DNA from: Spirochaetia bacterium
GTDB lineage: Bacteria > Spirochaetota > Spirochaetia > UBA9216
Assembly: GCA_963675665.1 (NCBI GenBank)
Contig: OY776510.1
Span: 4,448,001-4,512,000 of the forward strand
Reading direction: 5' to 3'
Length of the DNA stretch: 64,000 bases
The notes under the pieces were generated by a model. It saw only the letters and a list, made by a program, of their open reading frames with translations. It was not told the DNA's origin and did no database searches. Positions 31,559-62,488 of the stretch are shown piece after piece; position 1 is the first letter of the stretch; each line of letters begins with the position of its first letter. Both the position numbers and the translations under genes were made by a program.

Positions 31559-31627
31559 GCCTTATTCTTAACCAGACCGCACGGCGGAGCCAAGGGATGG
31601 TTTTATAGATACAAAATATATAATTTT

Positions 31628-32164
31628 TCATATGTTCTTTTCAATTTTTCTTTTTTCTATTTCTCTATTAATTTTCTCTATATCACATTGCTCAATAAAG
31701 TATTCTTTATCATCAAAATCAAATAACTTAATTTTTAATTTATCTGTATTCTCAAATATAGCTGGAGAAAGCATTGGCAAATCTTTTGTTTCACCACTTT
31801 CTAATACTATCGGAAGCAGTCTCTTTCTAATCCCATAAGCTTCTTCAGGTTGTTCGTACCACCCAGGAGAACCTTCTGTCTTTATACCTTTTCTTGTATA
31901 ACCAGAATATTCAATTCCTTTAATCGTAATACGTTCAGAACCAAGATTTGCTAATAAAATGACAACGATTGGAAATTTTTCCTTTGTAACCTGATCAATT
32001 TTCAATAGATAATATAAATCCGTCTTAAATTTTTTCTTTTCTTTATTCTTTTTTATTTTTGCTATACAAAAACGAATAAAACCAACAACTACAATAATTG
32101 TTGAAAGAATAGCACCATATAATGCAACTATATTGAATTCTTTCATTTCGCTCACATATTCCAT
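31628..32164 (-). CDS. hypothetical cassette protein with N-terminal TM
   Basis: 178-aa ORF in cassette 3-4. Confidence 0.7.
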   Translation of the reverse strand: MEYVSEMKEFNIVALYGAILSTIIVVVGFIRFCIAKIKKNKEKKKFKTDLYYLLKIDQVTKEKFPIVVILLANLGSERITIKGIEYSGYTRKGIKTEGSPGWYEQPEEAYGIRKRLLPIVLESGETKDLPMLSPAIFENTDKLKIKLFDFDDKEYFIEQCDIEKINREIEKRKIEKNI

Positions 32165-32183
32165 TTTTATATTAAATCCTTAA

Positions 32184-32759
32184 TTAGATTGCTCCAATAT
32201 TTTCAAGAGAATTCTTTACAATCTTTAATGTTGGTATCATGATACACTCTTCAATAGAACTCAATCTTGTATAAACATCTAAGCCACCAAGTTGAATTGT
32301 TTCATCATCATTCATATCGACTGTAGCCCACCATTCATCAATACTAGCAGCTCGACGATTGAGTCCGAAATATGTATTATATGAAATAGTCAAAAAATCC
32401 TTATAAAAGTTTTCGGCATCATTAAGATGTTTTAAATTCGCAGTATATAATTCTATTCGTTTATCTACCCATTCAGGATTATATGATCCAATAGAACTAA
32501 GATGACTATCAACACTTTGATTGAACCAAAGACGTATTTTATCATTATTTAAATTCAATTCACATATGAAATAATCATATCTAAAAAGAGCAAATATAGC
32601 TGATTCGAATTTATAAACATCTTTGCATTTAATTGGCTGTATATCCATAGAAACACTAACCAGAGCCTTTACACGGTCAAGAAAAGCATTTTCAATTTTA
32701 TCAAGATGTGAATAAATTTGTTCCCTCGTAAGTTTTATTTTCTTCCTAAATAGCCCCAC
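32184..32759 (-). CDS. hypothetical cassette protein
   Basis: 191-aa ORF, GGAG RBS, GTG start just after hairpin A. Confidence 0.7.
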   Translation of the reverse strand: MGLFRKKIKLTREQIYSHLDKIENAFLDRVKALVSVSMDIQPIKCKDVYKFESAIFALFRYDYFICELNLNNDKIRLWFNQSVDSHLSSIGSYNPEWVDKRIELYTANLKHLNDAENFYKDFLTISYNTYFGLNRRAASIDEWWATVDMNDDETIQLGGLDVYTRLSSIEECIMIPTLKIVKNSLENIGAI

Positions 32760-32878
32760 TTTTTTACTCCATGCTTCTTCATAGCCCGTCGGCCGGAGGT
32801 CCGGGCTATTTCTTCAAACTTATTTTACACCCAGAAGGCTAACACTGCTATTATTTTTATTTTTAGCCCTTTAAGTGC

Positions 32879-33016
32879 ATTTAACGACCAAATCAGTTGC
32901 AAAATCGGCCGAGTCTTCGAGGCTTGGCGCAGTTCTGGAGTGAAGCGCGATCAGCGCTGAACGTCTCCGCCAGAACTGTGACAAAGATTTTGACAACTGC
33001 ATTTGTCATGTTAAAT
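32879..33016 (-). repeat. attC 4
   Basis: atttaac...gttaaat. Confidence 0.92.
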
Positions 33017-33104
33017 GCCTTTTCTTATCAGACCGTACGGCGGAGCCAAGGTCTGATTTCTTTTGATATTTATATTTTATAGCCAAGCTTCAAGTTCATT
33101 TTAT

Positions 33105-34478
33105 TCAATTTTCACACTGATTTATAAACTTTTCAACATATTTATAAATACTCTCATATTTTCTTGACTCACTATCCTCTGATAAAAATATTTTAAATTC
33201 TTCTCTTGCTAAATTAAAATCTTCATGCTTGTAAAAGAATAACAAGCCTAAACAATAATGCAATTGATATTTCTCAGGCTCCTCATCTAATATCCCATAT
33301 ATAAATTTTTCACATTGTATATGTACATTATTAGCAGCTCTATTTCTAAAACCTAATTTATAAAAATTATAAGCTTTATCTAACTTCTCTTCATAAGCAA
33401 ATAAAAATGCTTTACTATATGCCCATGTATAATCGCCGGTTGCTCTCTTCTTTGCTTCAAATAATCTTTCATGTGCAACTTTTAAATTTCTTTCATGAAA
33501 ATAAAAAATTGCACTAAGGGTACACATATCATAGCTCAAAGGACATAATTTTTCAGCTTCATGTACTTTTTCACCTATTTTCTCCCAATTACATTCCCCC
33601 AAATATTCATTTATTGCAAAGAAGTGTATTTCCGCCATTAGAAATTCTTTATTATTTTTCTGTATACGTTCAAAATTGGTTTTTAATATTTCAGTATCAC
33701 TTTCAATTTTGATTTGATTACATTTCTTATGCAATTTATATGCTATATCAATAAATCCATTATATGCACATGCTAATCCCAAAATATACAATGAGCCATA
33801 AGAAAATATAAGTGAATTCAGGCTGAAGCCAGTAAGTTCTTGATCATATGAAATCATTGAATTGCGAGGAAATACTGAATACATATCTTGAATAATATTA
33901 TTTTTCCTATCCAACGGTATAGTTTTATGAGAAATAGACTCATTAAATTCAATTACGTAATGCTCCTTACCATTTTGAATTCTATTCCTTGCAACACCAT
34001 ATAAAATAAATTTTGCTTTACTCTTATCATGATATTTCTTTGCTAACAATTTATTATCATTAATTTTCTCAGAATGATATTCAGACAATGTAATCACTTT
34101 AATTTTCTTATCTACACTTTTTATACTTCTTTCAATTTCATCAAAAAAATCTTTTTTAATTTTCTCTCTAACCTTATCATTATCTGTTCTAATCGCAAAC
34201 AAAACTCCAATATCATTTTTTCTAAATTTTGGGATTCTCCTTAAATAAAGCCATATAAAAATGAGAAATATATCTACTATACAAAAAACAATAATATTAT
34301 TTATTATTAAATTCTTATTCGTTGATAATACTTCCAAAGCTGGTATATTATAATCATCAATGGATCCATACAATTTGATTATCCAACTTATAAATAATAA
34401 GAATTGAACCCCTGTAATTGAAATTTTCCTTTCAAGGAGTAGTTTCATTCTGCGCAATGTATCATAACTATCTAACAT
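33105..34478 (-). CDS. membrane-anchored protein with TPR-like C-terminus (copy 1)
   Basis: two N-terminal TM segments, helical repeats such as LHYCLGLLFF...LAREEFKIFL. Confidence 0.75.
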   Translation of the reverse strand: MLDSYDTLRRMKLLLERKISITGVQFLLFISWIIKLYGSIDDYNIPALEVLSTNKNLIINNIIVFCIVDIFLIFIWLYLRRIPKFRKNDIGVLFAIRTDNDKVREKIKKDFFDEIERSIKSVDKKIKVITLSEYHSEKINDNKLLAKKYHDKSKAKFILYGVARNRIQNGKEHYVIEFNESISHKTIPLDRKNNIIQDMYSVFPRNSMISYDQELTGFSLNSLIFSYGSLYILGLACAYNGFIDIAYKLHKKCNQIKIESDTEILKTNFERIQKNNKEFLMAEIHFFAINEYLGECNWEKIGEKVHEAEKLCPLSYDMCTLSAIFYFHERNLKVAHERLFEAKKRATGDYTWAYSKAFLFAYEEKLDKAYNFYKLGFRNRAANNVHIQCEKFIYGILDEEPEKYQLHYCLGLLFFYKHEDFNLAREEFKIFLSEDSESRKYESIYKYVEKFINQCEN

Positions 34479-34611
34479 TTTATAATCTCCGATTTTATTC
34501 TTAATAATTCTATCATCGCCCGTCGGCCGGAGGTCCGGGCGATTTCTCTTACTTATTTTACACCCAGAACTCGAAAACGGCTAACAATTTCATCGAAACA
34601 TCCCTAAGTGC

Positions 34612-34751
34612 ATTTAACGACGTTTTGAGCTGCCTGGCGGCCGCAGTCTTCTGCGGCATTGGCGTGATTCTGGAGTGGAGCGCGATCAGCGCGAAACGTC
34701 TCCGCCAGAATCATGACAATAGCCAGGACTGCTCCAAAACTTTTGTTATAT
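34612..34751 (-). repeat. attC 5
   Basis: atttaac...gttatat. Confidence 0.92.
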
Positions 34752-34760
34752 TTTTGTCTT

Positions 34761-37367
34761 TCATAATAAGTTTTCAATATCATCAAGTGATAATTTCTCA
34801 TATTCAATATCATATCCTGGATATTTCATTATTAAATTCTTTGCTTTTTCTTTTAGTTTATCCAATTTTATCTTATCTTTATTCATCTTTACTTCTACAA
34901 TTATCAATTTCTTTTCAATTTCATCTAATGCGACTATATCTATTTCATTCTTATTACCTTTTTCCCAATATGTACCAATTAATCCAAGATTCGGATTATC
35001 TTTTTTTATCTCAATAAATAATTTTTCTAATATTGGTCCAGAATATGTACTTAAATCTTTTTCTATAATTTTCCATAGCTGTCCAAAATAAGGACTATTA
35101 ATAGCCTGAATCCCTGGTTATAATGAATTGAGCGGGCAAGCTTAAATCATTACAACGGAAGGAAAACAGGCAATGAGTTATAAGAATAGCATTTTAAATC
35201 AGATACTTCAAATCATTCCGAGACATGAATTTGAAAGATCTGTCAGAAAGTATAAAGGAGATTTTGCTTCAAAAGGATTCTCCTGTTGGGAACAATTTGT
35301 TTCAATGCTGTTTGCCCAATTTACAGGACAGACCGGACTTAGAGGCATAGAAACAGCATTGGATTCGATTAAAAACATGCTTTATCATTTGGGGGTAAAA
35401 AAGATTAAACGCTCAACACTTTCCTATGCAAATAACAACAGACCCTCAGAAATTTATGAAAATGTATTCAATAACCTGCTGACAAAGATCCTTAAAATGA
35501 AAAGGTCTCATAAGCATAGATTTAAAAATCCGCTGTACAGTGTTGATGCGACAACCATCGATTTATGCCTGTCAGTATTTCCATGGGCGAAGTTTAGAAA
35601 GAATAAAGGCGGAATCAAACTTAATGTAAAACTTGATCACAGCGGATATATTCCGGACTTTGTATCTGTTACAACAGCTCAAACCCATGAGCTTAATTCA
35701 CTCAAGAAAATGAAATTCAATAAAGGTGATGTAGTTGCATTCGATCGGGCCTATACAGATTTCAAATTATTTGCAAGTTATTGTATTGCAGGCATTTATT
35801 TTATTACTCGTATGAAAAAGAATGCAGATTATAAAGTTTTTCAAAGAAATAATGTTTCAAAATATGAAAATATTTCATCAGATCAAATAATTGAAATGCG
35901 AGGATACTACACCAGCAAGAAGTGTCCACTCCAATTACGGCGAATTAGAATAAAAGATCCGGAAACAGGAAAATATATTGTAATTCTTACAAATCAGCTT
36001 GATTGGGCACCTACAACAGTTGCTGCTGTCTATAAGGACAGATGGCAGATAGAAATATTCTTCAAAACAATCAAACAGAACCTGAAAATAAAGAAGTTTT
36101 TTGGAACGACGAAAAATGCAGTAATGACTCAGATCTGGATAGCATTGATAACTCATCTGATGCTGCAATATCTGAAGATGTTATCTTCCGGTGGATGGAC
36201 TCATTATTCGCTTATGAAATTGCTTCCATCAATCCTGACGACCAGAAAAGATCTCTGGAATATTCTGAATAAACTACCGCCGCCCGGCAGAAATGAGCCA
36301 GGCTTAAAACTTCAAATGGAGCTGTTATGATTGTTTTGGACAGCTATGATAATTTTCTTTATTAATTCATATCGTTCATCCTCTATTAGCCTTATATTTT
36401 TATAAATATATCTAAACCAGAATTTTATAAAATTATCCTTTATTCCATATTTTTGACTTTTTCCATTTTTTTTACTTCCAACTGGTTTTATTTTTTCAAT
36501 TACATCATATTCTACTTCTAACTTTTCTAAATACCCGCCTATACTTTTTTCTAATATGGATTCTATTTCACTTCGAGAAGTACGCCCAACTGAAATCATC
36601 TCCAATATTGAAAAATATATTCCATAATCCTTTCCAAATTCTTGAATTAATAAATTCTTTCCTTCTCCTATAAAAAAAGAGTCCTTTTCCAATATCAAAT
36701 CAAGTATTTTATCAAAGCTATAACATTTTTCTTTTACCAATATTTCTTGGTATCTTGGCACTCCACCTGTTATTAAATAATTATAAAAAAGATTTTCTTT
36801 GCTGTAAGCATTATTATCAATTAATATTTCTTTTATAACTTTCACTTCAAAAGGTTTTATATATAAAATTCTATCTGCCCTTCCATATAAAGGTTCTTTT
36901 GAATTTTGAAAGATTCGTATCATCATTGAGTATATCGAACCTATAAATATTACATAGACTTTTGTCTCAAATTTATATTTATCCCATAAATTTTGTATTT
37001 CAGAATAAATACTCGAATTTATATTATTAAACTCCTGAAACTCATCTATTATTAATACATAAGGATTGTCTTTTCCAAATTTCAATAATTGCTCGAATAA
37101 CTTTGTGAAACTCTTTACTTCTCCAATTATTTCCTGACCAGTAAATTTTTCATATTCTTCTTTCAATTCTTCACACAATAACGGTTCAGCTTTTTTACTT
37201 GTAAAGAAATATAGGTGCTTTTTATCTTTGGCAAATTCTTTTGATAACAGTGTTTTCCCTACACGACGTCTACCTGTTAAAACAGTTATTGCTCCGTATG
37301 ATTCTTCACATTTTGAGTATATATCGTTTAATATTGTTAATTCTTTATAACGGTCATAAAATCTCAT
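34761..37367 (-). pseudogene. AAA ATPase/DUF234 protein split by IS4
   Basis: GRRRVGKT, IIDEFQ; C-terminus KIIEKDLSTYSGPILEK...IENLL* resumes left of the IS. Confidence 0.88.
35074..36348 (+). mobile_element. IS4-family element copy 1 (transposase 35173-36330)
   Basis: 15-bp IR catagctgtccaaaa; 9-bp TSD ATAATTTTC; DATT, FDRAY, YKDRWQIE motifs. Confidence 0.96.
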
Positions 37368-37398
37368 AGCAACCTCCGTTACTGTAACAGCTATTGCT

Positions 37399-37428
37399 AT
37401 TATAATATCCTTATCACGGAGTTGTCAA
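37399..37428 (-). promoter_or_regulatory. consensus sigma70 promoter inside the ATPase cassette
   Basis: TTGACA-18-TATAAT followed by GGAGG RBS. Confidence 0.75.
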
Positions 37429-37431
37429 TAA

Positions 37432-37567
37432 ATATAACGACGATTTGAGTAGCAAAATTGATCGGCGTCTTCGCCGAATTGGCGCGATTCTGGAACGAGC
37501 GATCAGCGAGTGTCTTTAGCCAGAATCGTGACAATAAATTTTGACTACTCCAAATCTTTTGTTATAT
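37432..37567 (-). repeat. attC 6
   Basis: atataac...gttatat. Confidence 0.92.
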
Positions 37568-37618
37568 GCCATATTTTATCAGACCGTACGGCGGAGCCAA
37601 GGTCTGATTTCTTCATAA

Positions 37619-38740
37619 TTACGATCTACTTAGATCTTTGAAATGTATTTCTACAACTTTTGAATAATTACCATAAGTTCTTATCAATTTCTTAGTTTTG
37701 ATAAATAATTCCTCATCTCTTAATTTATTTCTTAATAATTCTACATACTCTGATTTAATCATATTCGCATTTATATAAAATCTTAATAAATCTTCTATCT
37801 CTTTATTATTATTTATTCCTTGATCATTTTTAATTTCATCTTCATTTTCTTTTGCTTTATCTTCTATAATTTCTTGTTCTTCAATTTTTTCATTACTTTC
37901 AGATAATGGAGAATTAGTGTCCGAACTTTCTATATCATTCTTTAATTGCTCTCCGAAAAAAGAATATACAACTCCTGAAAATGTACCATAAGTTCTTATC
38001 AATTTAATAGCATGTTCATAATTATTTCTTTTCATCAGATTTTTATATAAATTGTTCATCTCAAAATCATTTATATTTCTGGAATTAATATAATGCTCAG
38101 TAATTGACTTTATTTTTTCAAATTTTTCTTGCTCAGTATGTTCATCTTTTATTATTGGTTTTTCAGGTAATATGTTTATGGCCACTTTTTTCGGGCCATT
38201 ATATTTCCATCTATTCTTTAAATAAATTCCGTTTATCAGCCACAAAACTGGATTAAATGAAATTATCGTCGCAATCAAGAATGCATATTTATTATATTTA
38301 AGAATTTGAATCATTAATACATTTATAATAATCATGTATATTATTCCAAAAACTGGATATTCAATTGCTGTAAATATTAAAATTATATTTCCTAAAGTTA
38401 AATTTAGCCAACCCCAGAATTTCCACCATTCATATCCCCAATCGTTATTATCATTTAAATTATTCTCTTTTTTTTCACAACTACTTTTTTTATCATTTTT
38501 TCCCTTTGCGTTATTGATTATATTGCCTACAACATTATCTTTGTGCTCCACTTTAATGGGAAGATTTTCTATACTTTTATTATTTTCTTTTATTTTATCA
38601 ACTTTTAAATTAATGTATTTATACTTGGCCTTTACTTCATCTCCTTCAGAGAGAACTATTGCTTTTGCCCATAATGCTTCATCAACATCACCACTTTCAA
38701 ATTCTTTTGTGATATTCAAAAATATAACTTCATCATCCAT
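37619..38740 (-). CDS. hypothetical membrane protein with internal repeat
   Basis: central TM bundle; KLIRTYG module present twice. Confidence 0.75.
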   Translation of the reverse strand: MDDEVIFLNITKEFESGDVDEALWAKAIVLSEGDEVKAKYKYINLKVDKIKENNKSIENLPIKVEHKDNVVGNIINNAKGKNDKKSSCEKKENNLNDNNDWGYEWWKFWGWLNLTLGNIILIFTAIEYPVFGIIYMIIINVLMIQILKYNKYAFLIATIISFNPVLWLINGIYLKNRWKYNGPKKVAINILPEKPIIKDEHTEQEKFEKIKSITEHYINSRNINDFEMNNLYKNLMKRNNYEHAIKLIRTYGTFSGVVYSFFGEQLKNDIESSDTNSPLSESNEKIEEQEIIEDKAKENEDEIKNDQGINNNKEIEDLLRFYINANMIKSEYVELLRNKLRDEELFIKTKKLIRTYGNYSKVVEIHFKDLSRS

Positions 38741-38906
38741 AAATATTCCTTTTTAATTATCAAACAATTACACCATATTCTTTTGTATCATTTTCGCATT
38801 TCAATTTCTTCATAGCCCGTCGGCCGGAGGTCCGGGCTATTTCTTCTTCATTTTACACCCAACAGCCCAAATCACCTAATATTTTTATTTCATCTCAATT
38901 TCGTGC

Positions 38907-39052
38907 ATATAACGACAATTTGAGCTGCGCCCTCGCTCCTGGAGCGAAGCGGAAGGAATTGGCGTGATTCTGGAGTGTAGCGCGATCAGCGCGGAACGTC
39001 TCTGCCAGAATCATGACAATAGACGGCGACTGCTCCAAATTTTTTGTTAAAT
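38907..39052 (-). repeat. attC 7
   Basis: atataac...gttaaat. Confidence 0.92.
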
Positions 39053-39097
39053 GCCTTTCTTAGCAGACCGCACGACGGAGTCAAGGTCTGGTTTCTA

Positions 39098-40240
39098 TTA
39101 ATCTATATATTTCTTCAGTTTTCTTTGAACTAAATTTAAAGATATATTATCCTTATAAGTAAAATAGATCACGTTTACTTTGTTTTCTTTACATAACTCA
39201 AATTTCTGCTTATCTCTTTTTTGCCCTTTTAAAAATGCTTCCTCTCCACCAAAAACATTTACCGGTACAAAATGCTGTTTTCCTTGATACTCAATAGCTA
39301 AATTTATTTCTTTTATAAAAATATCTATTCTTAATGGACTCAACCAAGAAGGACTATATTCACGAATAATAGTATAATCAGAAAAATTTTCCTTTATTAT
39401 TGAATATAAAAGACCTTCATTTTTCCATTTTGATGTTTTTAACAATCTATCAATTTCGGCTCTTGCTGTTTGTGAATCAATTTCGGCAAATAGCTCCATA
39501 TAATCAATAAAAGGCTTTTTATAAAAAATGTAGTTTGTTCCATATTTTGATTGAAGAATTTTAATTCCATCATTTTTTGCTATGCACAAATGACAAATAT
39601 TTTCACGTATTTTTGCTCCATCAGGAATACCTCCTGCTTTTTTAAATACTTCTTTCGAACATGCACAAATATTAGCACCACCATTTATAGCATTGTAATA
39701 GATTGGTAATAATCGTCTTTTATCCTCACTGATATATTTCTCATCCCATATCAAATAATCTTCAATTTTATTTTTATTGTATATATTTATAACATTCTTA
39801 AATATAATAGAGGGCAGGAATAATGTAGATAATCTAGTTTTTAAATTTACTTGTGTCTTTAGTTCTTTTTTATAAAAATGTTGATTTTTTCTTACACCAT
39901 AACCATAATTATAATATTTAAATTCTGCACCAATTACTTCGAATTCAATTTCTTCGATAATCGTTGGTTTTTTCCATTTTGTAATTATATCAATATTATG
40001 TATTTTCAATCCGTCTTCTATTAACATATTTATGGATAAATTTTTATTATTATAACAATCATGTGTTAATACTGAAAAATCAATATTGTTTTCTATACTT
40101 TCATTAATTTGCTTATTCATTTCATCATAAATCTTTTCTTTTATTACTCTTTCTACATCTTTTATAGGTTTCTTAGGCTTTTTTGATAAAGATTTAACTA
40201 TATCATTCTCAATCTTATGAAAATTCAATATAATATTCAT
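39098..40240 (-). CDS. protein with C-terminal Vsr/DUF559-like endonuclease motif
   Basis: LRIDIFIKEINLAIEYQGKQH...QKRDKQK; CxC...CHLC. Confidence 0.7.
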   Translation of the reverse strand: MNIILNFHKIENDIVKSLSKKPKKPIKDVERVIKEKIYDEMNKQINESIENNIDFSVLTHDCYNNKNLSINMLIEDGLKIHNIDIITKWKKPTIIEEIEFEVIGAEFKYYNYGYGVRKNQHFYKKELKTQVNLKTRLSTLFLPSIIFKNVINIYNKNKIEDYLIWDEKYISEDKRRLLPIYYNAINGGANICACSKEVFKKAGGIPDGAKIRENICHLCIAKNDGIKILQSKYGTNYIFYKKPFIDYMELFAEIDSQTARAEIDRLLKTSKWKNEGLLYSIIKENFSDYTIIREYSPSWLSPLRIDIFIKEINLAIEYQGKQHFVPVNVFGGEEAFLKGQKRDKQKFELCKENKVNVIYFTYKDNISLNLVQRKLKKYID

Positions 40241-40272
40241 ATATTATTCCGCATAACATTCACAATTTTTCA

Positions 40273-42681
40273 TTATCCATTTAGAACCGGTGAAACAGTT
40301 AATTTTTTTAACGCTTTTTCATAGAATCCAAAATCAGAATCTGAATATATAGTCTGTAAACCTTTAACTAATTCTAAATCATTCTTTTGTTCATATTCAA
40401 GAAGACCTTTATGTATAACTGTCCTATATAGTTTACATGATAAAGGAGACGTCATATATATTTTTTTAACCAAAGTACTACAAAACTTTTCTGAATCTAT
40501 TTGTTTTTTTGCAGGGAAAACTACATTTATTGTCTTATTAGGATCAATATTATTAACATTTACTCTTGTTGAAGAAAATATTATTCCATCAATATTACTA
40601 TTTCTTTGCACATGTTGCATTAATATTTGTGGGATAATATATTCTGGTTTAAAAGGCATCTGCCTTTCTTTTACTTTAATTTGACATGATGCAATAATAG
40701 GCCAAAGAATTAAATAACTATTTATTGTTTTAATTAATGTCTTAATTGTAATCCTTTCATCAAATTCTTCTTCCGGAAATTTATTCAAATATGATAATAG
40801 TATTTTATTTGTAACTGATATATTGAGCAAATTTACAGTATTATCTTCTGCTAATTCGAATTTAGAAATATGTATCTCATCAAATGATGGACGATCCATT
40901 TCCTCCCAACAGATGTAAGATGACGTTCCTAAATATAAAGCAGGATTTCCTGGTATACTAAAACGGTATGAATTTATGATTCTTCGCTTATTGTAAGGTA
41001 CATGAAATAAGTCTCCCATTTCTAACGATGGCAAGTCTGAAAGTCTTATTCTATATAATTCTTTGTATGGCATTAATTCTTTATCACGTTCAAGTAATTT
41101 AAAGCTATCAAGTACTGGATCTATTTTTTTCATAAGATAATTGAAACTATTATAAGAGGCGATTACATTTCCTTCTAAATAATGAGAAATAACCAATAAG
41201 ATTTTCTCTTCGACTTTTTTAATCATTTGATAATCATTTTCATAGCTGTCCAAAATAAGGACTATTAATAGCCTGAATCCCTGGTTATAATGAATTGAGC
41301 GGGCAAGCTTAAATCATTACAACGGAAGGAAAACAGGCAATGAGTTATAAGAATAGCATTTTAAATCAGATACTTCAAATCATTCCGAGACATGAATTTG
41401 AAAGATCTGTCAGAAAGTATAAAGGAGATTTTGCTTCAAAAGGATTCTCCTGTTGGGAACAATTTGTTTCAATGCTGTTTGCCCAATTTACAGGACAGAC
41501 CGGACTTAGAGGCATAGAAACAGCATTGGATTCGATTAAAAACATGCTTTATCATTTGGGGGTAAAAAAGATTAAACGCTCAACACTTTCCTATGCAAAT
41601 AACAACAGACCCTCAGAAATTTATGAAAATGTATTCAATAACCTGCTGACAAAGATCCTTAAAATGAAAAGGTCTCATAAGCATAGATTTAAAAATCCGC
41701 TGTACAGTGTTGATGCGACAACCATCGATTTATGCCTGTCAGTATTTCCATGGGCGAAGTTTAGAAAGAATAAAGGCGGAATCAAACTTAATGTAAAACT
41801 TGATCACAGCGGATATATTCCGGACTTTGTATCTGTTACAACAGCTCAAACCCATGAGCTTAATTCACTCAAGAAAATGAAATTCAATAAAGGTGATGTA
41901 GTTGCATTCGATCGGGCCTATACAGATTTCAAATTATTTGCAAGTTATTGTATTGCAGGCATTTATTTTATTACTCGTATGAAAAAGAATGCAGATTATA
42001 AAGTTTTTCAAAGAAATAATGTTTCAAAATATGAAAATATTTCATCAGATCAAATAATTGAAATGCGAGGATACTACACCAGCAAGAAGTGTCCACTCCA
42101 ATTACGGCGAATTAGAATAAAAGATCCGGAAACAGGAAAATATATTGTAATTCTTACAAATCAGCTTGATTGGGCACCTACAACAGTTGCTGCTGTCTAT
42201 AAGGACAGATGGCAGATAGAAATATTCTTCAAAACAATCAAACAGAACCTGAAAATAAAGAAGTTTTTTGGAACGACGAAAAATGCAGTAATGACTCAGA
42301 TCTGGATAGCATTGATAACTCATCTGATGCTGCAATATCTGAAGATGTTATCTTCCGGTGGATGGACTCATTATTCGCTTATGAAATTGCTTCCATCAAT
42401 CCTGACGACCAGAAAAGATCTCTGGAATATTCTGAATAAACTACCGCCGCCCGGCAGAAATGAGCCAGGCTTAAAACTTCAAATGGAGCTGTTATGATTG
42501 TTTTGGACAGCTATGAATCATTTTTATTTATTGTTATATGAGGGTTTTTATCAATAATGCCTTCAACAAATCTATTATATTTTTTAAAAACATGCTTTAA
42601 CCCTGTTGAAATATTTTCTGATGTAAGAACTATTGGAAATCCTATAATCTCATTTGAAAGTATCTCTTTTAATGTTTTCAT
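40273..42681 (-). pseudogene. RES-domain protein split by IS4
   Basis: LYRIR, RFSIPGNPALYLG...WEE, PEYIIPQ, GIIFSS; N-terminus MKTLKEIL...KND rejoins in frame across the TSD. Confidence 0.85.
41241..42515 (+). mobile_element. IS4-family element copy 2 (transposase 41340-42497)
   Basis: same IRs, TSD AATCATTTT, identical protein. Confidence 0.96.
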
Positions 42682-42812
42682 ACTAAACACCTTTTAGATT
42701 TTATGCTTTATTCTTTCGCCCGTCGGCCGGAGGTCCGGGCGATTTCTTCTCCCCTATTTTACACCTCAAAACGGTTATCAGCTAACATTTTTATTGAATC
42801 AATCTAATGTGC

Positions 42813-42950
42813 ATTTAACGACGATTTGAGTAGCAAAATCGGCCGAGTCTTCGAGGCTTGGCGCAGTTCTGGAACGTAGCGCGATCAGCGCGGAGTGTCT
42901 CTGCCAGAACTGTGACAAAGATTTTGACTACTCCAAATCTCTTGTTATAT
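42813..42950 (-). repeat. attC 8
   Basis: atttaac...gttatat. Confidence 0.92.
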
Positions 42951-43078
42951 GCTGTTCTTAACCAGACCGTACGGCGGAGCCAGGGCTGGTTTATTATCTA
43001 ACTTTATTGAAATTCATAGCATTTTTTTGATGACCGTCCTAATCGGATTAAAACAGCCTATTTCTTCAATTATAAAAG

Positions 43079-43537: not shown

Positions 43538-43555
43538 CTTTTCTTCTCCTATTTC

Positions 43556-44044: not shown

Positions 44045-44204
44045 CCTTCACCTCATAATAATGACATCCAATCAAAATATTCATTATGACTAAATATGCA
44101 CTCTTCACAGCCCGTCGGCCGGAGGTCCGGGCTGTTTCTTCTCACTTATTTTACACCCAACCAAAAAAATAACCTAACATTTTTATTTTTTCCTAATTTC
44201 ATGC

Positions 44205-44350
44205 ATATAACGACAAAATCAGTTGCGCCCTCGATCCTGAGCCGCAGGCGAAGGAATTGGCGTGATTCTGGAACGTAGCGCGATCAGCGCGGAGTGTCTC
44301 CGCCAGAATCATGACAATAGACGGCGACAACTGCATTTTTTTTGTTATAC
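44205..44350 (-). repeat. attC 9
   Basis: atataac...gttatac; the upstream gene's stop codon lies in the core. Confidence 0.92.
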
Positions 44351-45519: not shown

Positions 45520-45537
45520 TTATAACCCTCTATTTAT

Positions 45538-46301: not shown

Positions 46302-46447
46302 ACAAAACGACAATTTGAGCTGCGCCCTCGATCCTGGAGCGAAGCGGAAGGAATTGGCGTGATTCTGGAGTGTAGCGCGATCAGCGCGAAACGTCTCCGC
46401 CAGAATCATGACAATAGACGGCGACTGCTCCAAATTTTTTGTTAAAT
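46302..46447 (-). repeat. attC 11
   Basis: acaaaac...gttaaat. Confidence 0.92.
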
Positions 46448-46522
46448 GCCGCTTCTTACCAGACCGCACGGCGGAGTCAAGGTCTGGTTCTATTCTTTTA
46501 AAATAGAATTACATCAATTAAT

Positions 46523-47773: not shown

Positions 47774-47906
47774 ACTCTATCCTTTCTCAAATACTTTTCA
47801 ATATAATAGCCCGTCGGCCGGAGGTCCGGGCTATTTCTATTCTTAATCATTTTAACCCCAATCTCAAAAACTGACTAACAAAATTATTGGACTAATTATG
47901 GCGTGC

Positions 47907-48044
47907 ATTTAACGACCAAATCAGTTGCAAAATCGGCCGAGTCTTCGAGGCTTGGCGCAGTTCTGGAGTGAAGCGCGATCAGCGCTGAACGTCTCCGCCA
48001 GAACTGTGACAAAGATTTTGACAACTGCATTTGTCATGTTAAAT
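47907..48044 (-). repeat. attC 12 (same sequence as attC 4)
   Basis: atttaac...gttaaat. Confidence 0.92.
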
Positions 48045-48132
48045 GCCTTTTCTTATCAGACCGTACGGCGGAGCCAAGGTCTGATTTCTTTTGATATTTA
48101 TATTTTATAGCCAAGCTTCAAGTTCATTTTAT

Positions 48133-49506: not shown

Positions 49507-49639
49507 TTTATAATCTCCGATTTTATTCTTAATAATTCTATCATCGCCCGTCGGCCGGAGGTCCGGGCGATTTCTCTTACTTATTTTACACCCAGAACTC
49601 GAAAACGGCTAACAATTTCATCGAAACATCCCTAAGTGC

Positions 49640-49778
49640 ATTTAACGACGATTTGAGTAGCAAAATCGGCCGAGTCTTCGAGGCTTGGCGCAGTTCTGGA
49701 ACGCAGCGCGATCAGCGCGGAGTGTCTTTAGCCAGAACTGTGACAAAGATTTTGGCTACTCCAAATCTTTTGTTATAC
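49640..49778 (-). repeat. attC 13
   Basis: atttaac...gttatac. Confidence 0.92.
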
Positions 49779-51048: not shown

Positions 51049-51187
51049 GTATAACGACGATTTGAGTAGCGAAACCGGCCGAGTCTTCGAGGCTTGGCGC
51101 AGTTCTGGAACGTAGCGCGATCAGCGCGAAGTATCTTTAGCCAGAACTGTGACAAAGGTTTTGACTACTCCAAATCTCTTGTTATAA
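51049..51187 (-). repeat. attC 14
   Basis: gtataac...gttataa. Confidence 0.92.
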
Positions 51188-52516
51188 ACATTCTTCCTCT
51201 ATCACTTCATCAATATCATTTAACCCAAGTCCAATATATTCTATTTCATAATCCTGATATTTCTTGATAAATTTATTTGATTTTTCATGCAACTTATTCA
51301 TATTCACTTTTTCCTTATTCATTTTGATTTCACCGATCAGCATTTTCTTATTTATCTCATCAATGCAAACCAGATCTATTTCATTTTGATTTCCTTTTTC
51401 CCAATAATTTCCAATTTCTACATATTTTCCAGAATATCGATATATTTCATGATAAAATTTTTCGAGAATGGGTCCGCTATATGTTCTTAAATCATCTTCT
51501 AATTTCTTTCTTATATATAGATAATTATTGTTCTCAATTGCAGAACGATATTTGTAAACATATCTAAACCAGAATTTTAAGAAATTATCTTTTATAAAAT
51601 ATTTTTGTATTCTTCCTGTCGGTTTTGCCCCTATCGGTTTAATTTTTCCAACAACATCATAATCGATTACTAATTTTTCTAAGTATCCACCAATATCTTT
51701 CTCTAATATCGATTCTATTTCACTACGAGATGTTCTTCCGTCAGACATTAATTCTAATATTGAAAAATATGTTCCATATTCTTTTCCAAATTCTTCAATA
51801 AGTATTGTTCTGCCTTCTTCAATAAATGGTGAATCAATCTCAAAATAGAAATCGAGGATTTCTTCTTCTGTATATTTTTCATTATCTAATAATATCTCTT
51901 GATATCTGGGTACTCCCCCAGTTAACATATAATTTATAAATAAATTATCTATACTATATTTATTATTATCAATCAGAATTTCCTTTATCACTTTTGGTGG
52001 AAATGCCTTAAGATACATTATTCTATCTGCTCTTCCAAAAAGCGGTTCTTTGCTATTCTTAAATATTTTATGCATCAGAGAGTAAATTGAACCTATAAAT
52101 ATTAGATGCACCTTTGATTCATTCTTATATTCATCCCATAGATTTTGTATCTCTGAATAAACTGATTCATTTATTTGGAAGAATTCCTGAAATTCATCAA
52201 TAATCACTACGATTTTTTCATTCTTTCCTAATTCCATTATCAACTTAAAGACATCTTTAAATCTTTTTATTTCTCCAATAACCGGAATATTGAAATCTTC
52301 TTTTATTCGTTGTATGAACTCCTCACAGAGAAGTATTTCATCTTTCTTTGATATGAATAGATATAGAGTTTTTTTATTCTTTGCGTATATTTTTGACAGT
52401 GATGTTTTCCCTATTCTTCTTCTACCTGTTATCACAGTCATAATGGATTTACAACTAACCTGGTTATACTGTTTTTCGAGCAAATCTAATTCACGTTCTC
52501 TTGCATAGAACTTCAT
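51182..52516 (-). CDS. AAA ATPase with DUF234 nuclease-like C-terminus
   Basis: FYARERE, GRRRIGKT, IIDEFQ, TGGVPRY, YW...EIDLV...GEIK. Confidence 0.9.
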   Translation of the reverse strand: MKFYARERELDLLEKQYNQVSCKSIMTVITGRRRIGKTSLSKIYAKNKKTLYLFISKKDEILLCEEFIQRIKEDFNIPVIGEIKRFKDVFKLIMELGKNEKIVVIIDEFQEFFQINESVYSEIQNLWDEYKNESKVHLIFIGSIYSLMHKIFKNSKEPLFGRADRIMYLKAFPPKVIKEILIDNNKYSIDNLFINYMLTGGVPRYQEILLDNEKYTEEEILDFYFEIDSPFIEEGRTILIEEFGKEYGTYFSILELMSDGRTSRSEIESILEKDIGGYLEKLVIDYDVVGKIKPIGAKPTGRIQKYFIKDNFLKFWFRYVYKYRSAIENNNYLYIRKKLEDDLRTYSGPILEKFYHEIYRYSGKYVEIGNYWEKGNQNEIDLVCIDEINKKMLIGEIKMNKEKVNMNKLHEKSNKFIKKYQDYEIEYIGLGLNDIDEVIEEECL

Positions 52517-56635: not shown

Positions 56636-56774
56636 GCTTAACGACGATTTGAGTAGCAAAATTGATCGGCGTCTTCGCCGAATTGGCGCGATTCTGGAGT
56701 GAGGGCCATTGCCCGAACGTCTTTAGCCAGAATCGTGACAATAAATTTTGACTACTCCAAATCTCTTGTTAAAT
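56636..56774 (-). repeat. attC 19
   Basis: gcttaac...gttaaat. Confidence 0.92.
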
Positions 56775-57374
56775 GCCTTCTCTTACCAGACCGCACGACG
56801 GAGTCAAGGTCTGGTTTTCTTAAATATTATTAATAATTGAAACTTTGATTATCTAATTCTTGAGTTTTAATATATCCACCATAGACCCATCCATTAATAT
56901 TTTCTTTTCTAATATTTACCCATGGAAAATCCATATTATCCAATTTATATGATATTGGTGTAACTCCCAACATTTCAATTTCTTCATTCTCTTGCAATAA
57001 TCCAAGAATATCTGAATCAGTACTAGGTAGTTTTCTAATTCTAAGGTTTTTTGTATTACAATATCCTTTATAAGGTTTTTGATATTGATAATCAATATTA
57101 CGTGCTCCCATACTATCCATAACTCTTACAAATTCCGAATTTTCTCCATGCAACTTGATTGCAATAGCCAATGGGGACATATAATCATTAAGTAAATTAA
57201 CTGTTGTTATTTTTGCTTTATTTTCAATTAAGATTTTAAAAGCTTTAATATTGTTTTTCTTTATAGCAAATACTAATGGATTTTCAAAAGATACTTGTAT
57301 ATCAAAGTTATTTACATTAAATCCATATTTTATACACAAATCAGTATAGAGATCATTTTTTATTCTTATTGACT

Positions 57375-58649
57375 CATAGCTGTCCAAAATAAGGACTATT
57401 AATAGCCTGAATCCCTGGTTATAATGAATTGAGCGGGCAAGCTTAAATCATTACAACGGAAGGAAAACAGGCAATGAGTTATAAGAATAGCATTTTAAAT
57501 CAGATACTTCAAATCATTCCGAGACATGAATTTGAAAGATCTGTCAGAAAGTATAAAGGAGATTTTGCTTCAAAAGGATTCTCCTGTTGGGAACAATTTG
57601 TTTCAATGCTGTTTGCCCAATTTACAGGACAGACCGGACTTAGAGGCATAGAAACAGCATTGGATTCGATTAAAAACATGCTTTATCATTTGGGGGTAAA
57701 AAAGATTAAACGCTCAACACTTTCCTATGCAAATAACAACAGACCCTCAGAAATTTATGAAAATGTATTCAATAACCTGCTGACAAAGATCCTTAAAATG
57801 AAAAGGTCTCATAAGCATAGATTTAAAAATCCGCTGTACAGTGTTGATGCGACAACCATCGATTTATGCCTGTCAGTATTTCCATGGGCGAAGTTTAGAA
57901 AGAATAAAGGCGGAATCAAACTTAATGTAAAACTTGATCACAGCGGATATATTCCGGACTTTGTATCTGTTACAACAGCTCAAACCCATGAGCTTAATTC
58001 ACTCAAGAAAATGAAATTCAATAAAGGTGATGTAGTTGCATTCGATCGGGCCTATACAGATTTCAAATTATTTGCAAGTTATTGTATTGCAGGCATTTAT
58101 TTTATTACTCGTATGAAAAAGAATGCAGATTATAAAGTTTTTCAAAGAAATAATGTTTCAAAATATGAAAATATTTCATCAGATCAAATAATTGAAATGC
58201 GAGGATACTACACCAGCAAGAAGTGTCCACTCCAATTACGGCGAATTAGAATAAAAGATCCGGAAACAGGAAAATATATTGTAATTCTTACAAATCAGCT
58301 TGATTGGGCACCTACAACAGTTGCTGCTGTCTATAAGGACAGATGGCAGATAGAAATATTCTTCAAAACAATCAAACAGAACCTGAAAATAAAGAAGTTT
58401 TTTGGAACGACGAAAAATGCAGTAATGACTCAGATCTGGATAGCATTGATAACTCATCTGATGCTGCAATATCTGAAGATGTTATCTTCCGGTGGATGGA
58501 CTCATTATTCGCTTATGAAATTGCTTCCATCAATCCTGACGACCAGAAAAGATCTCTGGAATATTCTGAATAAACTACCGCCGCCCGGCAGAAATGAGCC
58601 AGGCTTAAAACTTCAAATGGAGCTGTTATGATTGTTTTGGACAGCTATG
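57375..58649 (+). mobile_element. IS4-family element copy 3 (transposase 57474-58631)
   Basis: same IRs, TSD TTATTGACT. Confidence 0.96.
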
Positions 58650-58947: not shown

Positions 58948-60222
58948 CATAGCTGTCCAAAATAAGGACTATTAATAGCCTGAATCCCTGGTTATAATGA
59001 ATTGAGCGGGCAAGCTTAAATCATTACAACGGAAGGAAAACAGGCAATGAGTTATAAGAATAGCATTTTAAATCAGATACTTCAAATCATTCCGAGACAT
59101 GAATTTGAAAGATCTGTCAGAAAGTATAAAGGAGATTTTGCTTCAAAAGGATTCTCCTGTTGGGAACAATTTGTTTCAATGCTGTTTGCCCAATTTACAG
59201 GACAGACCGGACTTAGAGGCATAGAAACAGCATTGGATTCGATTAAAAACATGCTTTATCATTTGGGGGTAAAAAAGATTAAACGCTCAACACTTTCCTA
59301 TGCAAATAACAACAGACCCTCAGAAATTTATGAAAATGTATTCAATAACCTGCTGACAAAGATCCTTAAAATGAAAAGGTCTCATAAGCATAGATTTAAA
59401 AATCCGCTGTACAGTGTTGATGCGACAACCATCGATTTATGCCTGTCAGTATTTCCATGGGCGAAGTTTAGAAAGAATAAAGGCGGAATCAAACTTAATG
59501 TAAAACTTGATCACAGCGGATATATTCCGGACTTTGTATCTGTTACAACAGCTCAAACCCATGAGCTTAATTCACTCAAGAAAATGAAATTCAATAAAGG
59601 TGATGTAGTTGCATTCGATCGGGCCTATACAGATTTCAAATTATTTGCAAGTTATTGTATTGCAGGCATTTATTTTATTACTCGTATGAAAAAGAATGCA
59701 GATTATAAAGTTTTTCAAAGAAATAATGTTTCAAAATATGAAAATATTTCATCAGATCAAATAATTGAAATGCGAGGATACTACACCAGCAAGAAGTGTC
59801 CACTCCAATTACGGCGAATTAGAATAAAAGATCCGGAAACAGGAAAATATATTGTAATTCTTACAAATCAGCTTGATTGGGCACCTACAACAGTTGCTGC
59901 TGTCTATAAGGACAGATGGCAGATAGAAATATTCTTCAAAACAATCAAACAGAACCTGAAAATAAAGAAGTTTTTTGGAACGACGAAAAATGCAGTAATG
60001 ACTCAGATCTGGATAGCATTGATAACTCATCTGATGCTGCAATATCTGAAGATGTTATCTTCCGGTGGATGGACTCATTATTCGCTTATGAAATTGCTTC
60101 CATCAATCCTGACGACCAGAAAAGATCTCTGGAATATTCTGAATAAACTACCGCCGCCCGGCAGAAATGAGCCAGGCTTAAAACTTCAAATGGAGCTGTT
60201 ATGATTGTTTTGGACAGCTATG
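58948..60222 (+). mobile_element. IS4-family element copy 4 (transposase 59047-60204)
   Basis: same IRs, TSD ATATAATGT. Confidence 0.96.
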
Positions 60223-60503
60223 ATATAATGTTATAAATCTTTTTAGATCATTTTGTTTTATTGCAAGATTAAACTCATCCCCATAATTTTCCATTGAAAA
60301 AATATTCATCACTTTAAATAAAAGCAATATAAAAATTATACAAAGATGTTTGTTCATAATGCTTTCTCTTCTCCAATCTTATATAAATCAACAATTATGT
60401 AATTATCGCCCGTCGGCCGGAGGTCCGGGCAATTTCTTCTTGCTTATTTTACACCCAGAACACGAAATCTACTATTATTTTTATTTGAACACCCTTTAAG
60501 TGC

Positions 60504-60642
60504 ATTTAACGACGATTTGAGTAGCAAAATTGTTCGGCGTCTTCGCCGAATTGGCGCGATTCTGGAGTGAGGGCCATTGCCCGAACGTCTTTAGCCAGAA
60601 TCGTGACAATAAATTTTGACTACTCCAAATCTCATGTTTTAC
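60504..60642 (-). repeat. attC 20
   Basis: atttaac...gttttac. Confidence 0.9.
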
Positions 60643-61244
60643 GTAACTGCCCATTATTGCAGTTCATCTTTTAACGATATTGGGACTATTACAACTAACC
60701 GCCCCAAATATATACCCAGCGATCAGCTGGGTTTCCTTGTTACATCTTTTTATCAGGTTACTTCTTTGCTGGTCAACGATGATATATCAATATTGCATTT
60801 TAACACGTTTCATTAACATTCTTATATTATTTATTTTTGATTATTCTGTTCGCGCCATATAAATTTTTCTACAGGATGAGAATAGTTATTACAGATACGT
60901 TGCAGTTTATTCCAGGTTTTTTTAAGTTATACAATTCTTATAATTATCATATCATCATTTTCCCAAGGGTTTTAAGAATGTTCATCAGCCTTATGCATTA
61001 GATATATTAAGTATTGTGATTCAAAACCAGATATTTTGTAAAATCGAAACTTTTTATAGGTTAGTTGGCTATCTATCAATACAATTGGAACGCATCTGAA
61101 ACATGATGTAGTTCAATTATTCTCTTTCTTAGACCTGCAAACTTTCGTTTTATCAAAGAACTGGTTTATCTATAATATGTTTTTTGATATTTTCATCTAC
61201 TGTTAGCTGCATAACTTCTGTTTTCAGCCTAAAATGCAGTTTAG
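60643..61244. other. ORF-less cassette, divergent family member 3
   Basis: no credible ORF; shares ctgcaaa...ttttatcaaagaact block with members 1 and 2. Confidence 0.65.
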
Positions 61245-61383
61245 GTAAAACGACGATTTGAGTAGCAAAATTGTTCGGCGTCTTCGCCGAATTGGCGCGA
61301 TTCTGGAGTGAGGGCCATTGCCCGAACGTCTTTAGCCAGAATCGTGACAATAAATTTTGACTACTCCAAATCTCTTGTTAAAT
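61245..61383 (-). repeat. attC 21
   Basis: gtaaaac...gttaaat. Confidence 0.92.
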
Positions 61384-61431
61384 ACCACTAATATCTTGGC
61401 CGAACGTCGGAGCCAAGGCCTGGTATTCTTC

Positions 61432-62328
61432 TTATAATTTCTTCTTAGCCATTGCTCTATCTATTTCGTTTTGCATTTTTTCCTCAATTGAGGGATAATC
61501 CTTTTTCTCAATATCTCGTACAAATTCTTTATACGGAAAACCATTAATCCAATCTAATTTAGTCAGCCTGATATTTAAATCTTTACATTTCCTATACATC
61601 ATTTTAGTATATTCATTTGTAACCTGTTCACCCAAAACAATTTCTTCTATACTATTTAATATATTTAAATAATACGACATAATTTCGCTATTTTTATCAT
61701 ATATACTATATCGATATTCATGCTCAGTTGACCAGTCTGACATTTTTGTAAAAATAAATAATTCTCTATGTCCCCAAATATAATCCGTTAAAATATGCTT
61801 TTTATAACCATTCTCCTCTAACATTTTATCAATTTCATAATTATTAAAAATTGATTTCAATTTATCTTTTTTTGATTCTAAATTATAATAGACTCTTCTA
61901 TTTGCATAATTATTTTGTTTATTCTTTATTTTCTTAAACTCTTGATCTAATTTATCTTTTCGAAGAATAATGCAACATCCTTTGTGCATATCACCATATT
62001 GTTCCCACATTCTTGGTTTTTTAACTATTAATTCCATATTGTCTTCTTGTATAAAGCATAATACTTTAAACATATCTTTAAGATTATCTTTTATAATTCT
62101 TTCAGAAGTAGTTACTAAACCACCATGAGCATGACGCACCGCAATTTTAAATAGAATATTCTTATTTTCAAATGGATCATTTGTATTGCTTAAGCTACTA
62201 AATTTAAATTGCATATTTTCTAATATTAATTCAAGCTTTCTTAAATTTGTAAAATGACCCAAAAAAGTAACTTTATCACTTTTATTATTCATTAAATAAG
62301 TCCTTATTAGTTCATCTTTTATATCCAA
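61432..62328 (-). CDS. DUF2971-like protein
   Basis: HFT, NDPFE, MWEQYGDMHKGCCI, KMSDWSTEHEYR. Confidence 0.82.
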   Translation of the reverse strand: MDIKDELIRTYLMNNKSDKVTFLGHFTNLRKLELILENMQFKFSSLSNTNDPFENKNILFKIAVRHAHGGLVTTSERIIKDNLKDMFKVLCFIQEDNMELIVKKPRMWEQYGDMHKGCCIILRKDKLDQEFKKIKNKQNNYANRRVYYNLESKKDKLKSIFNNYEIDKMLEENGYKKHILTDYIWGHRELFIFTKMSDWSTEHEYRYSIYDKNSEIMSYYLNILNSIEEIVLGEQVTNEYTKMMYRKCKDLNIRLTKLDWINGFPYKEFVRDIEKKDYPSIEEKMQNEIDRAMAKKKL

Positions 62329-62488
62329 TAAAGAATCTAATCCATTGCATTGATTCTACAACTTATATGCAAATAATGGCTCTAATGTTTCTCCATAGCC
62401 CGTCGGCCGGAGGTCCGGGCTATTTATCTTATTCTACCCCCAATCTCAAATAATAGCTAATAAAGTTATTGGGCATTTTAGAGTGTGT

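Follow-up and report, generated by a model that had tools for sequence, protein, structure and literature searches.

The closest described counterpart of the locus analysed here is the sedentary chromosomal integron, in which attC sites with matching boxes form an array, the cargo genes are co-oriented and the gene of the integrase IntI stands at the array head, pointing away from the array. To our knowledge, classical cassette descriptions include no conserved elements outside attC. We analysed a 64,000-nucleotide stretch of a Spirochaetia bacterium (GenBank assembly GCA_963675665.1, contig OY776510.1, positions 4,448,001 to 4,512,000 of the forward strand), called the window throughout, which shows the same layout. 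A subclass of its cassettes differs from classical ones in carrying two conserved hairpins outside the R boxes, A in the leader and B in the trailer, and these hairpins are found across attC types and taxa. In IS200/IS605 ends, PATEs and REP/RAYT, too, a variable segment has small GC-rich hairpins at its two borders, both on the same strand; however, no Y1 HUH gene was found in this genome, and A and B lie only beside attC and not at varied target sites. A further relative could be the DUF1874 motif (Weinberg et al. 2017, PMC5737381), described there as structured, recurring from one intergenic region to the next and suspected of being an attC-like element of an unusual kind that works as single-stranded DNA. 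It differs in that no Rfam match occurs here and in that A and B are additional to an ordinary attC. Neither the passages on this motif nor those of PMC8352920 (Ghaly et al. 2021) on Spirochaete attC types mention such flanking hairpins. In the literature outside subscription journals, we found neither the hairpin sequence, nor conserved hairpins outside attC, nor HARP-bearing integrases, in agreement with the initial annotation of the window, made from its letters alone, whose author knew of no description of the architecture.

The window from 29.4 to 63.8 kb is an integron cassette array with 23 attC sites of ~136–148 bp. The sites were mapped with a reference attC and its flanks as the query, and the matches were then compared side by side; a generic inverted-repeat attC finder was too noisy in AT-rich DNA to give exact counts of cassettes with and without A in related arrays. 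RYYYAAC and GTTRRRY boxes are present, and the boxes bordering each cargo are complementary, the right box of attC n matching the left box of attC n+1. The genome, a single contig of 5.15 Mb (96% complete), has 52 such sites in two blocks, at 4417.9–4448.0 kb and 4477.4–4524.3 kb. A canonical IntI (TIGR02249, 392 bits, cut-off 265; G000:4525383-4526315, G000 being this genome) lies just past the last attC, and its IntI-specific additional segments are visible in the alignment. Nearly all long open reading frames (ORFs) of the array are on the - strand, with the cargo co-oriented. A duplicated 457-aa gene (33105-34478 and 48133-49506, - strand, 99.8% identical) makes up cassettes 4 and 12, which have the low-coordinate-side attC in common and not the high-side attC; thus, a cassette reads R'-leader-gene-trailer-attC on the - strand. 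With the cargo on that strand, A therefore lies upstream of the genes and B downstream, as initially annotated, and the + strand is the attC bottom strand. The position of IntI beyond the high-coordinate end, transcribed away from the array, agrees with this assignment. By cumulative GC skew, replication starts near 0.85 Mb and ends near 3.5 Mb, which makes the attC bottom strand the leading-strand template at the array. The duplication of a cassette with its attC may bear, indirectly, on recombination of the folded bottom strand by IntI.

Hairpin A is GCCCGTCGGCCGGAGGTCCGGGC, 23 nt long, with nine exact copies in the window, all on the + strand, against 0 expected from 100 shuffles. Hairpin B gives seven matches at ≤3 mismatches. 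The other two of the nine B copies in the initial annotation, at 42964 and 61397, are degenerate, and in the latter the outer stem is compensated (GGCC/GGCC). The copies and the neighbouring attC sites are listed below.

31421..31558, + strand: attC 3, of cassette 3, whose bottom strand is the + strand
31574..31598, + strand: hairpin B, trailer of cassette 3, 3' outer arm damaged (2 mismatches)
32784..32806, + strand: hairpin A, leader of cassette 3, exact match
32807..32878, - strand: conserved R'-A' leader of cassette 3, same layout in all nine A/B cassettes, motif only
32879..33016, + strand: attC 4, of cassette 4, between A (32784) and B (33030), three-hairpin fold
33030..33054, + strand: hairpin B, trailer of cassette 4
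34518..34540, + strand: hairpin A, leader of cassette 4, exact match
34612..34751, + strand: attC 5, with A of cassette 4 to the left and no B to the right
37432..37567, + strand: attC 6, of cassette 6
37581..37605, + strand: hairpin B, trailer of cassette 6
38815..38837, + strand: hairpin A, leader of cassette 6, exact match
38907..39052, + strand: attC 7, between A (38815) and B (39065)
39065..39089, + strand: hairpin B, trailer of cassette 7, inner stem GAC/GTC
42718..42740, + strand: hairpin A, leader of cassette 7, exact match
42813..42950, + strand: attC 8, between A (42718) and B (42964)
42964..42988, + strand: hairpin B, trailer of cassette 8, degenerate 3' arm (GGGCTG)
44110..44132, + strand: hairpin A, leader of cassette 8, exact match
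44205..44350, + strand: attC 9, with A of cassette 8 to the left
46302..46447, + strand: attC 11, of cassette 11
46461..46485, + strand: hairpin B, trailer of cassette 11, inner stem GGC/GTC with a + strand G.T wobble
47809..47831, + strand: hairpin A, leader of cassette 11, exact match
47907..48044, + strand: attC 12, between A (47809) and B (48058), identical to attC 4
48058..48082, + strand: hairpin B, trailer of cassette 12
49546..49568, + strand: hairpin A, leader of cassette 12 (the cassette 4 duplicate), exact match
49640..49778, + strand: attC 13, with A of cassette 12 to the left
56636..56774, + strand: attC 19, of cassette 19
56788..56812, + strand: hairpin B, trailer of cassette 19
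60408..60430, + strand: hairpin A, leader of cassette 19, exact match
60504..60642, + strand: attC 20, with A of cassette 19 to the left
61245..61383, + strand: attC 21, of cassette 21
61397..61421, + strand: hairpin B variant, trailer of cassette 21, outer stem GGCC/GGCC, one inner-stem mismatch
62398..62420, + strand: hairpin A, leader of cassette 21, exact match
62489..62628, + strand: attC 22, with A of cassette 21 to the left

Both hairpins are present in nine of the 22 cassettes (between attC 3-4, 4-5, 6-7, 7-8, 8-9, 11-12, 12-13, 19-20 and 21-22), and the other 13 have neither. This reproduces the initially annotated list exactly, and the probability of such perfect co-occurrence by chance is 1/C(22,9) = 2e-6. 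In the window, A lies in the cassette leader, 72–75 nt from the R box, and B lies between the stop codon and attC, mostly 13–14 nt past the other R box, the copy at 61397 included (15–16 nt in two copies). The distance from A to B is ~270 nt, and A-leader-attC-B is contiguous in the circular cassette, so the annotated scaffold is confirmed. The two hairpins share one build, with a GC-rich outer stem, additional 5'-side bases, an inner stem of 3–4 bp and a GGA loop closed by C-G. The GNA loop pattern gives very stable DNA mini-hairpins. The covarying pairs described initially were all found: the extension stem of A occurs as ATAG/CTAT, ATCG/CGAT and ACAG/CTGT, and the inner stem of B as GGC/GCC or GAC/GTC, with a G.T intermediate at 46461. 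Rfam gives 0 matches in the window at gathering thresholds, and between 32700 and 33120 only a chance-level CrcZ match at E ≤5. Two of the 13 plain cassettes have other small leader hairpins unrelated to A, so that these cassettes lack A and B as annotated but are not all free of hairpins: cassette 2 has TAGCCATCCATGGCTA with GAAGAA before it, and cassette 17 has CCCGC-TCC-GCGGG beside R'.

The cargo of the A/B cassettes is unrelated. In an all-against-all blastp of 12 proteins from eight of the nine, leaving out cassette 12 as the duplicate of cassette 4, the sole cross match was 31% over 86 aa (E = 8e-4); the earlier statement that the cargo is unrelated apart from one duplicate thus stands. 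We read the hairpins as part of the cassette recombination module and not of the cargo genes.

To find the strand on which A and B fold, we gathered B-like sequences under a rule that makes no distinction between G.T and A.C (≥6 of 8 Watson–Crick pairs, ≤1 other mismatch), a selection that inflates the percentage of paired cells and cannot create wobble asymmetry. The 26 distinct variants, read on the GGA strand, hold 184 Watson–Crick pairs, 12 G.T, 1 A.C and 11 other mismatches. For 21 distinct B sequences, 93.5% of the cells are paired on the GGA strand, including 9 G.U, compared with 88.7% and 1 G.U on the opposite strand. Both sides have changed in 26 cells, spread over five of the eight pairs, and none of 500 shuffles reaches the observed pairing or covariation, while the unpaired bases GNAC, GGA and AA are constant. 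The step from GGC/GCC to GAC/GTC always runs via GGC/GTC, which is recurrent, and the reverse intermediate was never seen. In A, wobble variants on the + strand are GCTCG (three genomes), ...GGGT (two) and GGCT (one); exceptions of the opposite kind are the core variant ...TCCAGGC in one genome and the extension stem of cassette 19. A 295-nt scaffold folds on the + strand into A, attC and B (-59.9 kcal/mol, z = -7.4), whereas the - strand gives -53.7 kcal/mol with the inner stem of A open, this stem being formed only on the + strand. The one-sided wobbles therefore identify the folded strand as the attC bottom strand and not the mRNA, as had been proposed initially, and together with the compensatory changes in B they indicate selection on structure. 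From these comparisons, the structure of A and B is selected on the attC bottom strand.

The gene strand nevertheless has features of its own. In all nine A/B leaders, an A-rich tract precedes a promoter-like T(T/A)AGN-N17-TGTAAAAT whose position, ~15–25 nt upstream of A', is constant and which could be a cassette-borne promoter; in a simple scan, promoter-like sites were not above shuffles (123 vs 105 ± 11). Purine-rich ribosome-binding regions come after A', and in 64 of 70 loci from the wider scan described below an ORF follows A' on its own strand, opposite to A. Ordinary A-tract/T-tract hairpins occupy the B position of other cassettes. These features suggest mRNA elements of self-contained expression cassettes, with A' as a 5' stabilising or insulating hairpin and B' as a 3' protective hairpin or terminator. 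The wobbles, however, favour the antisense strand (9 vs 1 G.U cells, 12:1), and A' on the mRNA strand has a conserved A.C mismatch and an unformed inner stem. There is no T run after B' on the gene strand that would give a U tract, and a simple terminator scan calls neither hairpin on either strand. In short-attC arrays, R' and A' are only ~28 nt apart, too close for a promoter to fit between them. The mRNA explanation is thus live but weakened, and we consider it unlikely. A related idea, in which the mRNA-strand loop of A' (CCUCC) acts as an anti-Shine–Dalgarno sequence, was set aside, as it is the other strand that folds.

As the folded strand is the antisense strand, A and B could instead act as RNA terminators or insulators that halt transcription running against the cassettes at both borders. 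On this strand, pyrimidine- or T-rich tracts of varying quality come after both hairpins, for example TATTTCTTC, GATTTCTTTT and GTCTTCCTCTT; however, many copies have poor U tracts (GTCTTCCTCTT, GACTCTCTTC), the terminator scan is silent and we saw no antisense promoter that is conserved. Nor would this reading account for the constant association with the R box, and we know of no special standing of the GGA triloop in RNA. This possibility seems to us distinctly less probable than mRNA elements, and we infer that A and B matter as single-stranded DNA and not as antisense RNA.

Genome-wide, A and B have 15 copies each, all in attC contexts: the main array and two small attC clusters at 3517–3527 kb and 3896–3923 kb, where they lie beside short (~95 nt) and long (~170 nt) attC sites. 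Nhmmer profile searches with flanks over the whole genome found no credible A or B elsewhere, and a genome-wide intergenic dispersal of the REP/BIME kind was not seen, the copies being confined to attC-bearing regions; the tie to attC, which sets them apart from REP or terminator repeats, was thus upheld. Nor is the GGA loop a habit of this genome, as terminator-like hairpins after ORFs outside the integron have GGA in 41 of 1025 cases and TCC in 46 of 1025. In the short- and long-attC clusters, the leader is only ~28 nt long and contains nothing promoter-like. Where the attC is of the short type, the pairing of leader and trailer continues past the R boxes, giving a longer attC stem with A and B at its base. 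Homologous cargo at 49% aa identity has A and B beside two different attC types; either A and B stay in place when the attC is exchanged, or related genes were taken up separately into the two chassis. At two hybrid junctions (G000:3519000-3519260 and, in another locus, L007 ~5600-5900), a truncated attC of the short type runs into a full-length long-type attC of this array, which suggests recombination between two cassette systems.

Two same-strand hairpins of the same build at the borders of variable cargo had also led the initial annotation to propose a second mobilisation layer, a nested single-strand element or gene-capture system with A-cargo-B or A-attC-B as the unit mobilised by an enzyme, such as an HUH nuclease or a reverse transcriptase. 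The occurrence of the same hairpins with different attC types, and their retention beside different attC sites by homologous cargo, would fit such a system. An HUH-type layer was not borne out, as PF01797 (Y1 transposase) has no match in this 96%-complete single-contig genome and is found in six of 14 control genomes; a PF04986 (Y2) search also gave no match, but its control was positive nowhere, so that it is uninformative. An observation in favour of such a system is that six identical group II intron reverse-transcriptase genes are present (G000:826976, 960669, 1091983, 3285602, 4209589 and 4877892). The three intron copies with a readable 5' junction directly follow ordinary terminator hairpins with T runs, which is class C behaviour, and none of the six lies in or beside the arrays; A and B thus do not behave as group IIC homing sites. 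Four 385-aa ORFs on the + strand of the window are DDE transposases. No A or B was found outside attC contexts, and the five solitary A sites examined all have an R box, retaining the leader and R box or attC as ordinary cassette ends or attC contexts. The A-gene-B units outside attC and the empty B-A junctions that the annotation looked to were likewise not encountered: every real A locus of the wider scan has an R-box motif 20–79 nt away, and no empty junction exists in this genome. A nested element is the least probable of the explanations considered here. A role of the hairpins in cassette genesis is conceivable.

Contigs from four DNA runs were compared with the window over 31400-51300. 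They break at repeats (attC, A, B), and joints with sides of 21–34 letters cannot be read as rearrangements. One joint in one run, from 46488 to 32775, would put B beside A; it is ambiguous and was not counted. The only clear joint is a form free of an insertion sequence (IS), in which 35064 is joined to 36349 with a 9-base overlap, seen in two public runs. This IS, with a 385-aa DDE_Tnp_1 + DUF4372 transposase, has four + strand copies within cassettes 5, 7 and 19, two of them in 19 (35065-36348, and ORFs at 41340-42497, 57474-58631 and 59047-60204).

The distribution of A in other genomes was then compared. At ≤2 mismatches, A is clustered and almost invariant in seven of the 11 genomes of the family, from three genera. 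When prokaryotes were scanned with each species represented by a single genome, at least 184 A-like stretches were obtained, of which 80 were examined; for a 21-base GC-rich pattern we estimate tens of chance matches in high-GC genomes. Eight of the 80 resemble chance matches, as their surroundings are GC-rich or unrelated, and the other 72 are taken as real A loci. An NTAAC R-box motif lies 20–79 nt downstream in all 72 (at 20–29 nt in 61), compared with one of the eight chance-like loci. A B-family hairpin lies ≤427 nt from A in 37 of the 72; these are regular-expression counts, used in place of a minimum-free-energy survey of the hairpin after attC, which undercounts B owing to alternative folds, and the regular expression also matched at one of the eight chance-like loci. 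Elsewhere, different hairpins occupy the B position, many with a GGA loop on the same strand (ACGGAC, TGGAT, AGGAC), and the one in an Omnitrophota genome has the same build as B. Two alleles of A occur, one with a TC bulge and the inner arm GGTC and the other with an AC bulge and the inner arm GGCC. The 72 loci come mostly from Spirochaetia metagenome-assembled genomes (MAGs), one genome having 153 copies on one strand, and the remainder from MAGs labelled Treponemataceae, Bacteroidales, Ignavibacteriales, Omnitrophota, Dehalococcoidia and Bacillota. A is thus found beside unrelated attC types, namely those of 136–148 bp, ~95 nt and ~170 nt and further types in MAGs labelled Omnitrophota, Ignavibacteriales, Dehalococcoidia and Bacillota.

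Such wide and uniform conservation could reflect a passive signature, with A and B as relics of the context or 'factory' of a cassette lineage that spread horizontally and have no present function. Near-identical A copies everywhere fit recent spread, and in the main integron A is found at 10 of 31 integrase-proximal attC sites and at none of 21 distal ones (p = 0.0034). However, A is 22/23 identical next to cargo proteins that share 49% aa identity, numerous attC types are accompanied by the hairpins, and the compensatory changes and one-sided wobbles in B are those of a structure under selection. We therefore give this explanation little credence, below that of antisense terminators and slightly above that of a nested element.

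Another comparison concerns the recombinases that accompany A. The short- and long-attC arrays with A at ~kb spacing have no adjoining canonical IntI. In seven genomes, a tyrosine recombinase of 339–358 aa is located upstream of, and co-oriented with, the first A cassettes of A-rich arrays; its stop codon is ~100 nt from the first A in two genomes and ~0.3 to 5 kb away in the others. These enzymes lack both segments of the IntI-specific insertion, and their positions are as follows.

G000:3511201-3512265, insertion-less recombinase
G000:3512857-3513921, insertion-less recombinase
L007:1044-2117, insertion-less recombinase
L006:14081-15154, insertion-less recombinase
L010:1844-2920, insertion-less recombinase
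L201:783-1802, insertion-less recombinase
L202:8120-9145, insertion-less recombinase
L012:1537-2592, insertion-less recombinase

The best matches of these proteins are to XerA-type models (232 bits), and the match to the integron integrase model is split. They have an extra N-terminal domain of ~80 aa with a weak Pfam HARP match (27.5 bits, cut-off 25). A confident alpha/beta fold is predicted for it (predicted local distance difference test ~90 over residues 10–60). A fold search gave only weak hits, none at E ≤0.001, the most probable being the HARP substrate-recognition domain of SMARCAL1 (probability 0.96, E = 0.09). The same N-terminal domain heads the reverse integrons of three Treponema-like genomes, which also have the recombinase upstream of and co-oriented with the cassettes. 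The Treponema-like enzymes, however, combine the domain with a full IntI core (TIGR02249, 420–490 bits), unlike those of the A-rich arrays, and the reverse-integron cassettes examined are without hairpin A. A different small GC-rich hairpin lies ≤~10 nt after R' in five intergenic regions of one locus, L205 (G291:C1:943500-955500), and in two of another, L207, CCTGCC-TAAA-GGCAGG being one of them; hairpins in the leader may thus be more widespread among Treponema-like reverse integrons. Among 301 sampled genomes of the class, the N-terminal domain is found in 64, hairpin A in 15 and both in nine; as these genomes are mutually related, the co-distribution is only a hint.

In lambda Int, an N-terminal domain binds arm-type accessory sites. 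The likeness lies in two accessory sites that flank a core site and in an extra N-terminal domain on the recombinase of the A-rich arrays; lambda arm sites are double-stranded repeats, whereas A and B, as putative arm sites, would be single-strand hairpins. On this model, A and B would be the 'arm' sites of an unrecognised integron-like system, in which the N-terminal HARP-like domain of the insertion-less recombinase binds both. A domain of the kind that recognises DNA junctions would then read the folded cassette sites in place of the insertion that the enzyme has lost, and the classical integron may also store such cassettes, as in the window. A and B are, however, also present in arrays headed by a canonical IntI without the N-terminal domain, the IntI of the window array among them, and the domain was not seen in six A-positive genomes. 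We consider this system improbable, ranking it behind mRNA elements and ahead of antisense terminators.

The explanation that we prefer, tentatively and at somewhat less than an even chance, is that A and B act in cis, as accessory hairpins of single-stranded DNA that belong to the cassette recombination site and aid the folding or recognition of attC. When the bottom strand (the + strand here) becomes single-stranded, possibly in replication, DNA uptake or the excised cassette, it would form three adjacent hairpins, A, the long attC hairpin and B. The outer two would help the recombinase to use attC, either as clamps that keep the attC arms from mispairing with the cargo or melting from the base, or as accessory 'arm-type' sites bound by a protein. 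Several observations weigh against this explanation. A' comes after a promoter-like motif and before a ribosome-binding site and B' just past the stop codon, which is an mRNA-hairpin layout. The 13 of 22 window cassettes and all 21 distal attC sites without A recombine or persist, so that the hairpins are not required by the canonical IntI. The distance from A to the R box ranges from ~24 to 74 nt, unlike a rigid architecture, and the nearest-neighbour DNA energies of B alone are alike on the two strands (-8.2 vs -8.3 kcal/mol). In addition, the near-invariance of A could come partly from recent horizontal spread, and the spread over phyla may be overstated, as the binning of cassette contigs into MAGs is unreliable.

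Apart from the cassettes, the first 29.4 kb of the window (1-29400, G000:4448001-4477400) form a stretch of ~29 kb without attC sites between the two blocks of the array. Its GC content is 0.37–0.43 vs ~0.30, and a 387-aa ORF in it has a weak tyrosine-recombinase match at 2374-2883; the stretch may be an inserted element. Just past the last attC, two genes that are not cassettes encode an NYN + OST-HTH/LOTUS protein (27293-28033) and a 414-aa protein with a DUF4268 domain (28045-29289).

Two open questions in integron biology are touched by these hairpins, namely how the integrase chooses a folded attC and how unrelated genes come to lie in near-identical recombination 'chassis'. The element is compact and defined: two hairpins in which the loop is fixed and the unpaired bases are constant while the stems covary freely, located outside the accepted borders of attC. 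Integron tools based on the IntI insertion would probably class the arrays headed by insertion-less recombinases as attC clusters without an integrase. If the hairpins have no effect on recombination, they are still a marker with which one cassette lineage can be traced between taxa. If they do affect it, the definition of the cassette border and the models of attC function would change.

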